Positions 26,302 to 34,203 are shown, counted from the first letter of the stretch. The stretch: 64,000 nt of DNA from an uncultured Chloroflexia bacterium (GCA_963833705.1 CAWHYQ010000002.1:398266-462265), one strand, 5' to 3'. Notes: generated from the letters alone by a model not told the origin. Translations and numbers: made by a program.

Positions 26302-27165
26302 GTGACGCGCGACATGCCCCGAAACGTCCGCGGCGCGCTCGTCCAGGCCAGCTGGACGGGCGACAAGGAATCGATGATCCAGAAGCACGAGCAGCGCGCT
26401 CACGAGGCCGCCACGCAGGGCGCCCAGTTCATCCTGTTCCAGGAACTGTTCTACGGGCCGTACTTCTGCCAGGTCCAGGACGCCCAGTACTACAGCTACA
26501 CCGAGCTCATCCCCGACGGTCCGACGACCAAGCGGATGCAGGATCTCGCCAAGTCGACCGGGATGGTCGTGATCGCGCCGATGTACGAGGAGGACGAGAA
26601 GGCCTCCGGGATCTACTACAACACCGCCGCGGTCATCGACGCCGACGGCAAGTACCTCGGGAAATACCGCAAGACCCACATCCCGCACGTCAAGGGCTTC
26701 TGGGAGAAGTTCTACTTCCGGCCGGGCAACCTTGGGTACCCGGTCTTCGAAACCGCGGTCGGCAAGGTCGGCGTGTACATCTGCTATGACCGGCACTTCC
26801 CGGAGGGCGCCCGGGCGCTTGGCCTGAACGGCGCGGAGATCGTGCTGATCCCGAGCGCCACCTCGCGCGGATTGTCCGAGTACCTGTGGCGGATCGAACA
26901 GGTCAGCCACGCGGTCGCCAACGGGTACTACGTCGGCACGATCAACCGGGTCGGGATCGAGGCCGACTACGGCGACGACGACTTCTACGGCCAGAGCTAC
27001 TTCGTTGACCCGCGTGGCCAGTTCGTGGGCGACGTCGGGAGCGCCCATGACGAGGAGTTGATCGTCCGCGACCTCGACCTCGACCGGATCACGGAGGTCC
27101 GGAACACCTGGCAGTTCTTCCGCGACCGACGACCCGACGCCTACGAGGATCTCGTCCGACCGTAG
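26302..27165 (+). CDS. carbon-nitrogen hydrolase, beta-ureidopropionase (N-carbamoyl-beta-alanine amidohydrolase) type
   Basis: ORF 26302..27165; the ATG at 26314, with a GAGG Shine-Dalgarno, is the more likely start. It has FQELF, YRKTHIP and VYICYDRHFPE (Glu-Lys-Cys triad context). Confidence 0.85.
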   Translation: MTRDMPRNVRGALVQASWTGDKESMIQKHEQRAHEAATQGAQFILFQELFYGPYFCQVQDAQYYSYTELIPDGPTTKRMQDLAKSTGMVVIAPMYEEDEKASGIYYNTAAVIDADGKYLGKYRKTHIPHVKGFWEKFYFRPGNLGYPVFETAVGKVGVYICYDRHFPEGARALGLNGAEIVLIPSATSRGLSEYLWRIEQVSHAVANGYYVGTINRVGIEADYGDDDFYGQSYFVDPRGQFVGDVGSAHDEELIVRDLDLDRITEVRNTWQFFRDRRPDAYEDLVRP

Positions 27166-27184
27166 AACGCGCTATCATCCGCGC

Positions 27185-27218
27185 CGGCTCGGCCGTCTGG
27201 AGGAGGACGGCCGAGCCG
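27185..27218 (+). terminator. 13-bp-stem hairpin followed by CTTCGTTTCCC, between beta-ureidopropionase and the LLM oxidoreductase
   Basis: The sequence is CGGCTCGGCCGTC tggaggag GACGGCCGAGCCG. It could act as a terminator or as an attenuator. Confidence 0.4.
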
Positions 27219-27243
27219 CTTCGTTTCCCGAAAGGCACGTCTC

Positions 27244-31705: not shown

Positions 31706-31712
31706 CCGCGCG

Positions 31713-32636
31713 ATGGCTCGGCCGGCCCCGGGCGAGATGGTCGTGCTCGATGGCGGGCTTGCGACCGAGCTCGAGGCGCGCGGGTACGACCTGTCGGACC
31801 GGCTGTGGTCGGCGCGGCTGCTGGTGACCGATCCGGACGCCATCGAGGACCTCCACCTGTCCTACTTCCGGGCGGGCGCCACGGTCGCGACGACCGCCAG
31901 CTACCAGGCGACCGTGCCGGGGTTCGAGGCGGCCGGGTACGACCGCGCGGCAGCGCTCGAGGCCATCCGCACGAGCGTGGCCCTGGCCCGACGGGCCAGG
32001 GATCGGTACCGGCACGAGGTCGGCGACACGGTCGCGCTGTACGTCGCGGGTTCCGTCGGGCCGTATGGCGCGATGCTCGCGGACGGGTCCGAATACCGCG
32101 GCGACTACGACCCCGGGTCGGCGACCCTGCGCGACGTCCATGCCCCTCGGATCGACACGCTGCTCGACGCCGGCGCGGACTTCCTCGCGTTCGAGACGAT
32201 CCCGACGATCCGCGAGGCGGAGGTCCTCGTGGACCTGCTCGTCGCATCCGGTGCTTCGGCCTGGCTGTCGTTCCAGTGCCGCGACGGCCGTTCGACCGCG
32301 GCCGGCGAACCCGCCGTGGAGGCGTTCGGCATCGCCGGGAGCGCACCGGGCGTCCTCGCCATCGGCGTGAACTGCGGCCCGCCACGCCATGTCCCTGCCC
32401 TGCTCGCGCTCGCCGCCGGCGTCGCCGACCGGCCGTTGATCGCGTATCCGAACGGTGGCGACACGTGGGACGCGACCGCCCGCCGCTGGATCCCGGCGGA
32501 CGGTGACGCTTACGACCCGGGCGCCGTGGCCTCCTGGACCGGCCTTGGCGCGACGTGGCTCGGGGGTTGCTGCGGGACGGGTCCGGCCGATATGGCCGCG
32601 CTGGCAGCCGCCATCGTCACGGCAGCCGAGCGCTGA
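31713..32636 (+). CDS. mmuM: homocysteine S-methyltransferase
   Basis: ATG at 31713 inside ORF 30936..32636. It has VVLDGGLATELEARG, FETIP, GVNC and the Zn-ligand motif GGCCGTGP. Confidence 0.85.
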   Translation: MARPAPGEMVVLDGGLATELEARGYDLSDRLWSARLLVTDPDAIEDLHLSYFRAGATVATTASYQATVPGFEAAGYDRAAALEAIRTSVALARRARDRYRHEVGDTVALYVAGSVGPYGAMLADGSEYRGDYDPGSATLRDVHAPRIDTLLDAGADFLAFETIPTIREAEVLVDLLVASGASAWLSFQCRDGRSTAAGEPAVEAFGIAGSAPGVLAIGVNCGPPRHVPALLALAAGVADRPLIAYPNGGDTWDATARRWIPADGDAYDPGAVASWTGLGATWLGGCCGTGPADMAALAAAIVTAAER

Positions 32637-32661
32637 CCAGCGGCGGTGCCGCCCGACGGCC

Positions 32662-34203
32662 TCAGCGCGTGCGCGGGAAGCCGAGGTCGATCTTGCTCGT
32701 GCCGGGATCTGGCCAGCGCGACGTGACGATCTTGGCCCGGGTGTAGAACTGGACGCCCTCGGGGCCATACATGTGCAGGTCGCCGAACAGCGATTGCTTC
32801 CAGCCGCCGAAGCTGTAGTAGGCGACCGGGACCGGGATGGGCACGTTGATCCCGACCATGCCCGCGTTGACCTCGAACTGGAACTGGCGGGCGGCCCCGC
32901 CATCGCGGGTGAAGATGGCCGTGCCGTTGCCGTACGGGTTGGCGTTGACCATCCCGACCGCTTCCTCGTACGTCTTCACCCGGACTACGGTCAGGACCGG
33001 CCCGAAGATCTCGTCGCGGTAGGCATCCATGTCGGTCGTGACGTGGTCGATCAGCGAGACCCCGAGGAAGAAACCGTCGGAGTCCCGGTACAGCGGGTGG
33101 TCGCGGCCGTCGGCGACGACCGTGGCGCCCTGCGCCGGGCCCGAGTCGAGATAGGACGCCACCTTGTCACGATGCTGCTTGGTGACGAGCGGGCCCATCT
33201 CGGCTGAGGGATCGCTCCCCGGGCCGACGGTGATCTTCGGGAGTCGTGCCTTGATCGCCGCCACGAGCGGGTCGGCCACGTCACCGACGGCGACGACCGT
33301 GGCGATCGCCATGCAGCGTTCGCCGGCCGAGCCGTAGCCGGCGGACACGGCCGCGTCGGCGGCCATGTCGATGTCCGCGTCGGGCAGCACGATCATGTGG
33401 TTCTTGGCCCCGCCGAGGGCCTGCACGCGCTTGCCGGCCTTCGTGCCCGTCTCGTAGATGTAGCGTGCGATGGGCGTGGAACCGACGAACGACACGGCGG
33501 CGATGTCGGGGTGGGCAAGGATGGCATCGACCGCGACCTTGTCGCCGTGGATGACGTTGAACACGCCGTCGGGCACGCCCGCTTCCGCCAGCAGTTCGGC
33601 GAGGTACGTCGCCGCCGACGGGTCCTTCTCGGATGGCTTCAGGATGAAGGTGTTGCCGGTGGCGATGGCGGTGCCGAACATCCACATCGGCACCATGGCC
33701 GGGAAGTTGAACGGCGTGATCCCGGCGACCACGCCAAGCGGCTGGCGGATCTGGTAGACGTCGACGCCGCTCGAGACCTGCTCGCTGAAGCCGCCCTTCA
33801 TCAGGTTCGGGATGCCGCACGCGAATTCGAGGTTCTCGAGGCCACGGGCGATCTCACCGAGCGCATCGGACGGGACCTTGCCGTGTTCCGCGGTCAGGAG
33901 CGCCGCGATATCGGTCCGATGGGCCTCGACCAGGTTCCGGATGCGGAACAGGATGTCGGTCCGCTTGGACAGCGAGGTCGCCCGCCAGGCCGGGAAGGCG
34001 GCCTTGGCCGCGGCCACCGCGGCGCCGACCTCGTCGACGGAGGCGAAGTCGACCTGCTTCGATAGCCGCCCCGTGGCGGGGTCGTAGACCGGGCCCTCAC
34101 GGCCCGAGGCGCCGGCGACGGTGCGCCCCCCGATCCAGTGGCTGACCCGACCCGGCGATGGTGCGGCTTGCCGGGCGGCGCCGGGTTCTGCGACCTGTGT
34201 CAT
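32662..34203 (-). CDS. mmsA: CoA-acylating methylmalonate/malonate-semialdehyde dehydrogenase
   Basis: ATG at 34203 inside ORF 32662..34680. It has HWIGGR, FPAMVPMWMF, FILKPSEKDP, GSAGERCMA (catalytic Cys) and GINVPIPVP. Confidence 0.9.
   Translation of the reverse strand: MTQVAEPGAARQAAPSPGRVSHWIGGRTVAGASGREGPVYDPATGRLSKQVDFASVDEVGAAVAAAKAAFPAWRATSLSKRTDILFRIRNLVEAHRTDIAALLTAEHGKVPSDALGEIARGLENLEFACGIPNLMKGGFSEQVSSGVDVYQIRQPLGVVAGITPFNFPAMVPMWMFGTAIATGNTFILKPSEKDPSAATYLAELLAEAGVPDGVFNVIHGDKVAVDAILAHPDIAAVSFVGSTPIARYIYETGTKAGKRVQALGGAKNHMIVLPDADIDMAADAAVSAGYGSAGERCMAIATVVAVGDVADPLVAAIKARLPKITVGPGSDPSAEMGPLVTKQHRDKVASYLDSGPAQGATVVADGRDHPLYRDSDGFFLGVSLIDHVTTDMDAYRDEIFGPVLTVVRVKTYEEAVGMVNANPYGNGTAIFTRDGGAARQFQFEVNAGMVGINVPIPVPVAYYSFGGWKQSLFGDLHMYGPEGVQFYTRAKIVTSRWPDPGTSKIDLGFPRTR

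Follow-up and report, generated by a model that had tools for sequence, protein, structure and literature searches.

A TIGR03842-family luciferase-like oxidoreductase as a candidate F420H2-dependent uracil/thymine reductase in a putative pyrimidine catabolism cluster of Limnocylindria

We analysed a 64,000-nucleotide stretch of DNA (CAWHYQ010000002.1:398266-462265; hereafter the window, with positions counted from its first letter) carrying a cluster of genes that together resemble a reductive pyrimidine catabolism pathway and that include a luciferase-like (LLM) oxidoreductase of the F420-dependent type. The G+C content of the window is ~70%, and a frame analysis of third-position GC (GC3) backed every open reading frame (ORF) previously listed; the original prediction, made from the sequence alone, had placed all of its named genes correctly, but it had overlooked a gene for a fusion of a UbiA prenyltransferase and a GT2 glycosyltransferase (UbiA-GT2) between those of the LLM and the dihydropyrimidinase. 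The genes of the proposed pathway are as follows:

26302-27165, plus strand: CN-hydrolase, probable beta-ureidopropionase (N-carbamoyl-beta-alanine amidohydrolase); PF00795, 219.7 bits
27244-28251, plus strand: TIGR03842-family LLM F420-dependent oxidoreductase, proposed F420H2:uracil/thymine 5,6-reductase; PF00296, 215 bits; TIGR03842, 449.7 bits
30308-31705, plus strand: dihydropyrimidinase / D-hydantoinase (DHPase, PydB); TIGR02033 equivalog, 582.5 bits against a cut-off of 393.25
32662-34203, minus strand: CoA-acylating malonate/methylmalonate-semialdehyde dehydrogenase (MMSDH); TIGR01722, 721.4 bits against a cut-off of 448.5
18443-19777, minus strand: class-III (omega) aminotransferase; PF00202, 290.5 bits; NF004718, 520.9 bits against a cut-off of 472
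14633-15820, 15832-16608, 16700-17575 and 17461-18411, minus strand: ABC importer, respectively an NMT1/THI5-type binding protein, a permease, an ATPase and a second permease

A comparison with proteins in the PDB gave the DHPase 520 bits to Bacillus D-hydantoinases and to the Brevibacillus dihydropyrimidinase 3SFW. The CN-hydrolase passed the cut-off of no equivalog model (268 bits on the aguB equivalog against a cut-off of 410), and its nearest PDB relatives were N-carbamoylputrescine amidase (207 bits) and the Drosophila and human beta-ureidopropionases (177 and 167 bits, respectively), with D-carbamoylases reaching only ~100 bits. As the protein is nearer to beta-ureidopropionases and carbamoylputrescine amidases than to D-carbamoylases, it fits a linear N-carbamoyl-beta-amino acid substrate. 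Beta-ureidopropionases of the CN-hydrolase type, as this one would be, are the eukaryotic type of this enzyme; many bacteria use an M20-type amidohydrolase. The upstream aminotransferase and NMT1-type ABC importer of the original prediction (14633-19777) were borne out by a Pfam scan, all on the minus strand; from its sequence matches the aminotransferase is a probable beta-alanine/beta-aminoisobutyrate transaminase, and the importer is a candidate pyrimidine uptake system. A dihydropyrimidine dehydrogenase (DPD) had been reported as missing from the window, and a tblastn search of the 64 kb with E. coli PreT and PreA was indeed empty at E <= 1e-3.

The LLM protein belongs to TIGR03842 (NCBIfam, F420_CPS_4043, 'LLM class F420-dependent oxidoreductase'), a hypothetical equivalog model without an assigned reaction, over whose cut-off of 295.45 bits it scored 449.7 bits while covering profile positions 1–329 of 329. 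This hidden Markov model (HMM) classification, which had been proposed as a check on the idea of an F420H2-dependent enzyme, puts the protein in an F420-dependent LLM subfamily, and the flavin mononucleotide (FMN)-revertant model TIGR03885 gave it only 35 bits. By sequence its nearest solved proteins were Mer (1.9e-37) and then FGD2, FGD1 and Adf, all of them F420 enzymes. An AlphaFold2 model (pLDDT 86.5, pTM 0.88) has the luciferase-like (beta/alpha)8 barrel fold, and in a Foldseek search with this model Mer was the best match, with TM-scores of 0.79–0.84, while the top 17 matches were F420 LLMs with TM-scores of 0.73–0.84. In a HMMER alignment the segment Cys62-Val63-T-N-P after beta-3 of the window protein aligned with Gly61-Val62-T-N-P of jMer, a segment that in Mer bears a non-prolyl cis-peptide beneath the F420 ring (PMC11094777). 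His37, the acidic Asp97 after beta-4 and the carboxamide Gln171 after beta-6 are invariant or nearly so across TIGR03842, and the retention of these three residues together with the VTNP bulge makes the sequence consistent with F420 binding. Residues ~205–270 form a conserved family-specific insertion (RWFPALVSNHV...YDY..H) that aligns poorly to Mer and is likely to be a substrate lid. F420 LLMs have been divided into F420-reducing dehydrogenases and Mer-like reductases that consume F420H2 (PMC6279831), and with Mer-type relatives nearest, the window LLM appears to fall on the reductase side of this split. TIGR03842 is large (at least 8000 matches at E <= 1e-30) and strongly conserved.

We took a census of the gene neighbourhood in two sets of loci, the 80 best genomic relatives of the window LLM (L002–L081) and 80 metagenome loci from a scan seeded with an alignment of ten clades, in which the LLMs were 45–65% identical to that of the window; a locus was counted as full-flank if the LLM gene had 4 kb or more on each side. 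All of the 80 best relatives, which are 79–90% identical to the window LLM, lie in metagenome-assembled genomes of Limnocylindria / CSP1-4 Chloroflexota, so the window comes from a member of Limnocylindria, a freshwater or soil bacterium, and not, as the original prediction had implied, from an actinobacterium. The LLM is under strong purifying selection, being 80–90% identical across Limnocylindria genomes in which the prolipoprotein diacylglyceryl transferase (LGT) proteins are only 42–71% identical.

Among the 48 full-flank Limnocylindria loci, DHPase and CN-hydrolase genes were each found in 47, and a class-III aminotransferase gene was co-located in 37. The genes usually run CN-hydrolase, LLM, variable insert, DHPase, with the aminotransferase and ABC genes upstream; LLM and DHPase are directly adjacent in five loci (L004, L018, L034, L074 and L081). 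The MMSDH gene is convergent and downstream in most Limnocylindria loci and lies within the operon in Acidimicrobiia. In the latter (Aquihabitans sp. G128 and Ilumatobacteraceae, with LLMs 46–48% identical to that of the window) the operon runs CN-hydrolase, DHPase, Aldedh, LLM, preceded by a divergent MocR-type regulator, and a class-III aminotransferase gene is nearby in both Aquihabitans and Ilumatobacteraceae; in the Ilumatobacteraceae operon the LLM gene is directly followed by permease, ATPase, permease and NMT1 binding protein genes, the same four-gene transporter as in the window. The metagenome loci gave a similarly tight association, with DHPase in 31 of the 32 full-flank loci, CN-hydrolase in 27 and at least one of the two in all 32, at a median LLM-DHPase distance of 164 nt; an NCS1 nucleobase permease was present in 23/32, MMSDH in 8/32 and a close class-III aminotransferase in 2/32. 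In one clade (P0127) the LLM gene overlaps the CN-hydrolase gene. Members that could be named by exact-sequence look-ups belong to Chloroflexota, Actinomycetota and Acidobacteriota (Terriglobales and Blastocatellia), and at least six gene orders are represented when the Limnocylindria, Acidimicrobiia and metagenome arrangements are counted. The transporter switches family, being either of the NMT1-type ABC kind or an NCS1 permease (TIGR00800, 395 bits), the latter in many other lineages, and it stays of a pyrimidine/nucleobase type despite this switch. No match to PreT or PreA at E <= 1e-3 was found by tblastn in the window together with 88 loci (1.36 Mb), nor in the 80 metagenome loci, which brought the sequence examined to 2.2 Mb. 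The census that had been suggested for the original prediction therefore found TIGR03842 in near-obligate linkage with DHPase and CN-hydrolase, in three phyla and through six or more gene orders, with no PreT/PreA nearby; like the HMM classification, it favours the original idea. The conserved core consists of transporter, LLM, DHPase and CN-hydrolase, i.e., a PydA-PydB-PydC module with the LLM in the PydA slot, and since the LLM is tied to DHPase (31/32) over MMSDH and the aminotransferase, the linkage points to the step that makes the substrate of DHPase.

Based on these observations, we think it reasonably probable that the cluster serves reductive pyrimidine catabolism, with the TIGR03842 LLM replacing PydA as an F420H2-dependent uracil/thymine 5,6-reductase; what we show are the gene identities, the family membership, the Mer-like fold and the linkage across phyla, and what we infer is the use of F420 in this organism, which substrate is reduced and in which direction the reaction runs. 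Because it adjoins a dihydropyrimidinase gene in three bacterial phyla, the LLM is a strong candidate for a uracil/thymine reductase of a new kind, and the balance tips slightly towards the wider proposal that TIGR03842 constitutes a third class of dihydropyrimidine dehydrogenase, of separate evolutionary origin (F420H2:uracil/thymine 5,6-oxidoreductase) and with it an F420-dependent pyrimidine catabolism. In the proposed route, uracil or thymine would be imported by the NMT1-type ABC system here, and by an NCS1 permease in many relatives; the LLM would reduce the pyrimidine by passing a hydride from F420H2 to its C6, with a proton going to C5, to give 5,6-dihydrouracil or 5,6-dihydrothymine; the dihydropyrimidinase would open the ring; and the CN-hydrolase would release beta-alanine or beta-aminoisobutyrate with NH3 and CO2. 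The class-III aminotransferase and then the CoA-acylating semialdehyde dehydrogenase would lead on to acetyl-CoA or propionyl-CoA. With an E0' of -340 mV for F420, F420H2 is a hydride donor at least as strong as NAD(P)H. Activated C=C bonds are reduced by F420 enzymes of the LLM class, as LxmJ does with dehydroalanine and Fht with the picrate ring (PMC8498797), and reduction of the uracil C5=C6 bond of mureidomycin genetically requires a putative F420/FMN oxidoreductase of another fold (PMC10714638). Given this potential and these precedents, the reduction of uracil or thymine by the LLM is chemically feasible.

Several further features lie within or near the cluster:

27185-27218, plus strand: conserved hairpin between CN-hydrolase and LLM, candidate regulatory or processing element
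28202/28286-30280, plus strand: UbiA-GT2 fusion, polytopic membrane protein of 664–692 aa
31713-32636, plus strand: homocysteine S-methyltransferase; PF02574, 244.8 bits; PRK09485, 346 bits
13580-14623, minus strand: XRE-type helix-turn-helix (HTH) protein adjoining the transporter; PF13560 and PF01381
within 4209-5129: uracil phosphoribosyltransferase (UPRTase)

The region between the LLM and DHPase genes (28252-30307 in the window) ranges from ~15 nt to >6 kb across L002–L081 and holds, besides UbiA-GT2, genes for a PAS histidine kinase/response regulator, a secreted protein, a thioredoxin-like protein, a glyoxalase-like protein, a molybdopterin oxidoreductase or, in L044, an FGD-family F420 LLM; it is an insertion hot spot within an otherwise conserved cluster. 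The UbiA-GT2 fusion has ~10 predicted membrane spans and matched NF009608 at 173.8 bits (below the cut-off), with a GT2 part resembling the carotenoid glycosyltransferase CruG and HpnB. We rejected it as a pathway member because just 11 of the 80 related loci have it in the gap, at 41–49% identity as against 80–90% for the flanking genes, and many unrelated genes take this place elsewhere; the fusion probably modifies carotenoids or lipids and has no connection with the pathway. The homocysteine S-methyltransferase was rejected in the same way, as it follows DHPase in only ~10/80 Limnocylindria loci, and its description in the original prediction as an unexplained passenger agrees with how seldom this slot is occupied. 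The UPRTase accounts for the upp gene that had been placed near 4479. The XRE-type HTH protein is a possible regulator, and homologues of it are close to the cluster in a few related loci.

The hairpin (CGGCTCGGCCGTC-TGGAGGAG-GACGGCCGAGCCG) has a stem of 13–14 bp and an invariant, Shine-Dalgarno-like GGAGGAG loop, lies between the stop of the CN-hydrolase gene and the start of the LLM gene, and is preceded ~15 nt upstream by a conserved GCGCTAYCATCC motif. It is unique in the window and occurs once, on the plus strand, in 50 of 81 Limnocylindria loci, always downstream of the CN-hydrolase gene. In an alignment of these hairpins 97.5% of cells were paired, with compensatory changes in five of the 13 pairs; the element had no Rfam match, and neither the Acidimicrobiia nor the metagenome loci had it. 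Possible roles are those of a terminator or attenuator, of a stabilising element, or of a binding site for a protein or the ribosome.

The neighbourhood data show the LLM to be a partner of DHPase and CN-hydrolase without naming the molecule that is reduced, and it is possible, though in our view unlikely, that the enzyme works in the same module on another substrate or step, e.g., on a 5-substituted uracil, an orotate-like or hydantoin-type ureide, or malonate semialdehyde in the manner of PydE/RutE. A DHPase with a CN-hydrolase is also the classical D-hydantoinase/carbamoylase pair, NCS1 permeases transport hydantoins and allantoin besides uracil, and alcohol and keto oxidoreductases occur among F420 LLMs. 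However, saturated hydantoins require no reduction, and we disfavour a hydantoin / D-amino-acid pathway on account of the CN-hydrolase, whose similarity to beta-ureidopropionase and N-carbamoylputrescine amidase (167–207 bits) exceeds that to the D-carbamoylases; the MMSDH and omega-aminotransferase within the cluster in two phyla fit a beta-alanine or beta-aminoisobutyrate product, and the LLM follows DHPase rather than the aminotransferase or MMSDH, which argues against a semialdehyde reductase. To the further idea that the LLM is a Mer-like F420-dependent methylene-tetrahydrofolate/pterin reductase feeding the neighbouring homocysteine S-methyltransferase in methionine synthesis we give hardly any credence. 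It is true that Mer is the closest characterised homologue of the LLM, that the methyltransferase gene is 3.4 kb downstream, and that an F420-dependent methylenetetrahydrofolate reductase (MTHFR) has been hypothesised for haloarchaea (PMC8305020), but the methyltransferase gene, present in so few of the loci, never adjoins the LLM gene, and both Mer HMMs scored far under their cut-offs (TIGR03555 and NF002619, 142.9 against 348.7 bits and 158.8 against 276 bits, respectively). Moreover, the catalytic glutamate common to Mer, Mfr and MTHFR (Glu6 of jMer, where an E6Q variant keeps 0.4% of the activity; PMC11094777) is replaced across TIGR03842, by Thr6 in the window LLM and by Ser, Val, Thr or Cys in ten divergent members of the family. 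As the counterpart of Glu6 is Thr, Ser, Val or Cys, and the Mer models remain below threshold, we rejected a methylene-pterin reductase.

Against a role for the LLM as an F420H2-dependent uracil/thymine reductase stand several points. Characterised F420-dependent C=C reductions are mostly carried out by the split-barrel FDOR family and not by LLMs. In the window an unrelated gene of 2 kb separates LLM from DHPase, and CN-hydrolase and LLM have a strong hairpin between them, so that co-transcription is not assured. Pfam scans of the ORFs of the 64-kb window found no F420-biosynthesis gene (cofC/D/E, fbiC, cofG/H). A protein of a further clade, P0130, passes the TIGR03842 cut-off (398.8 bits) in a different context, its locus (L086, 1646-6759) having a divergent second LLM of 446 aa, a PCMT-type methyltransferase, an isochorismatase-family hydrolase and an amidase, and no DHPase was found on this 8.4-kb contig; the clade may be a paralogous subfamily with another N-heterocycle as substrate. 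Finally, the LLM could be an addition to PydA and not a replacement for it, the search for PreT/PreA having covered the window and the related loci. A PydA or PreTA encoded elsewhere would then do the first step, and the LLM would be a conserved neighbour with an unrelated or accessory role such as detoxification or cofactor recycling, and its separation from DHPase in the window by an unrelated gene agrees with this. We consider this explanation improbable, since shared ancestry alone is unlikely to account for a linkage that survives at least six rearranged gene orders in three phyla, with gaps often <50 nt or reduced to stop/start overlaps, and since no PreT/PreA lay within 8–10 kb of any of 160+ clusters. 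As to the supply of cofactor, the FGD-family F420 LLM of the Limnocylindrales locus L044 gave 440 bits on TIGR03557, and F420 has been biochemically confirmed in Chloroflexi, with F420-biosynthesis genes reported in Acidobacteria (PMC8498797); the organism of the window would presumably use F420 as well.

In addition to the cluster, the window had other features of note. A group-II pyridoxal phosphate (PLP)-dependent decarboxylase (24210-25745, minus strand), whose weak matches to diaminobutyrate decarboxylase and the PLP-type aspartate 1-decarboxylase PanP each fell far short of the cut-off, is kept just upstream of the CN-hydrolase gene in many Limnocylindria loci. There are two LGT paralogues, a divergent one beside MMSDH (34305-35234, minus strand; 60 bits), which is syntenic with the cluster throughout Limnocylindria, and a canonical one (56490-57566, minus strand; 208 bits). 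The gene for ATP-dependent phosphoenolpyruvate (PEP) carboxykinase is split into overlapping ORFs in different frames (38133-38801 and 38329-39720, both minus strand) that match Pfam positions 126–346 and 345–464 (one each), a frameshift that reflects either a pseudogene or an assembly error. A PLP-dependent (PALP) enzyme (40453-41853, plus strand) has a C-terminal ThiS-family sulfur-carrier domain, and this fusion suggests a protein-thiocarboxylate-dependent route to cysteine or a related biosynthesis.

If the LLM is the proposed uracil/thymine reductase, a function would be assigned to the large and strongly conserved TIGR03842 family and the first step of pyrimidine degradation would be supplied in several abundant environmental phyla. 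F420-dependent pyrimidine catabolism would then occur in abundant soil and freshwater Chloroflexota, in Acidimicrobiia and other Actinomycetota, and in Acidobacteriota, and would be the first defined role of F420 in primary catabolism outside Actinobacteria and methanogens; according to a 2021 review, experimental work on F420-dependent enzymes of bacteria had not gone beyond Actinobacteria (PMC8498797). A primary-metabolic reduction of an enamide/enone-type C=C bond would likewise join the repertoire of F420 LLMs, with possible uses in hydantoinase/carbamoylase-type biocatalysis and a bearing on the microbial metabolism of fluoropyrimidine drugs. In the literature that we searched, with incomplete coverage of subscription journals, no paper connected dihydropyrimidinase or the degradation of pyrimidines with F420 or TIGR03842.

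Among published ideas, the one closest to ours is a remark on an F420 LLM replacing a DPD-like reductase in the reductive uric-acid pathway of Chloroflexota (PMC12507026). In that cluster the DPD-like YgfK/UacX is missing and a putative F420 LLM (PF00296) is in its place, a likeness put forward on bioinformatic grounds only; however, it belongs to a purine pathway with SsnA, HyuA, YgeW, YgeX and YgeY, none of which is found in the window cluster. NpsU and SSGG-03002 of the napsamycin and mureidomycin pathways differ in that the only remote relatives named in the BLAST table of the paper describing them are of the PPOX-class split-barrel type and not LLMs, and in that they act in secondary metabolism on a uridyl peptide, with cofactor and in-vitro activity unproven (PMC10714638). 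Mer (PDB 8QPL, 8QPM, 1Z69 and 1F07) is the best match to the window LLM in both sequence and fold and has the VTNP cis-peptide segment and the His, Asp and carboxamide positions in common with it, but the window LLM is only ~29% identical, falls below both Mer HMM cut-offs, has Glu6 replaced and carries its own insertion at ~205–270. RutA, the FMN-dependent pyrimidine monooxygenase of the Rut pathway, is another member of the LLM superfamily and likewise opens a catabolic pathway by acting on uracil or thymine, cleaving the ring with FMNH2 and O2; its model TIGR03612 did not appear among the top 25 families that the window LLM matched, and no rutB–G genes were seen in the Pfam annotation of the window. 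The canonical Pyd pathway starts with an NAD(P)H- or ferredoxin-dependent PydA or PreT/PreA, continues through PydB and PydC, and ends in beta-alanine transaminase and (methyl)malonate-semialdehyde dehydrogenase. The window shares with it a clustered DHPase, a probable carbamoyl-beta-alanine-type amidohydrolase, an omega-aminotransferase, a CoA-acylating MMSDH and an uptake system, but it lacks the dihydroorotate dehydrogenase-like FMN/Fe-S PydA or PreT/PreA, and its sole core oxidoreductase is the TIM-barrel, F420-type LLM. A precedent comes from Clostridium chromiireducens, where a ferredoxin-dependent PydA rewires the first Pyd step to another reductant while PydB and PydC are unchanged (PMC7332683). 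The C. chromiireducens enzyme is still a homologue of PydA, whereas in the window a whole protein family would have been replaced, so that our finding would be a pathway variant arising by non-homologous replacement of the first enzyme.

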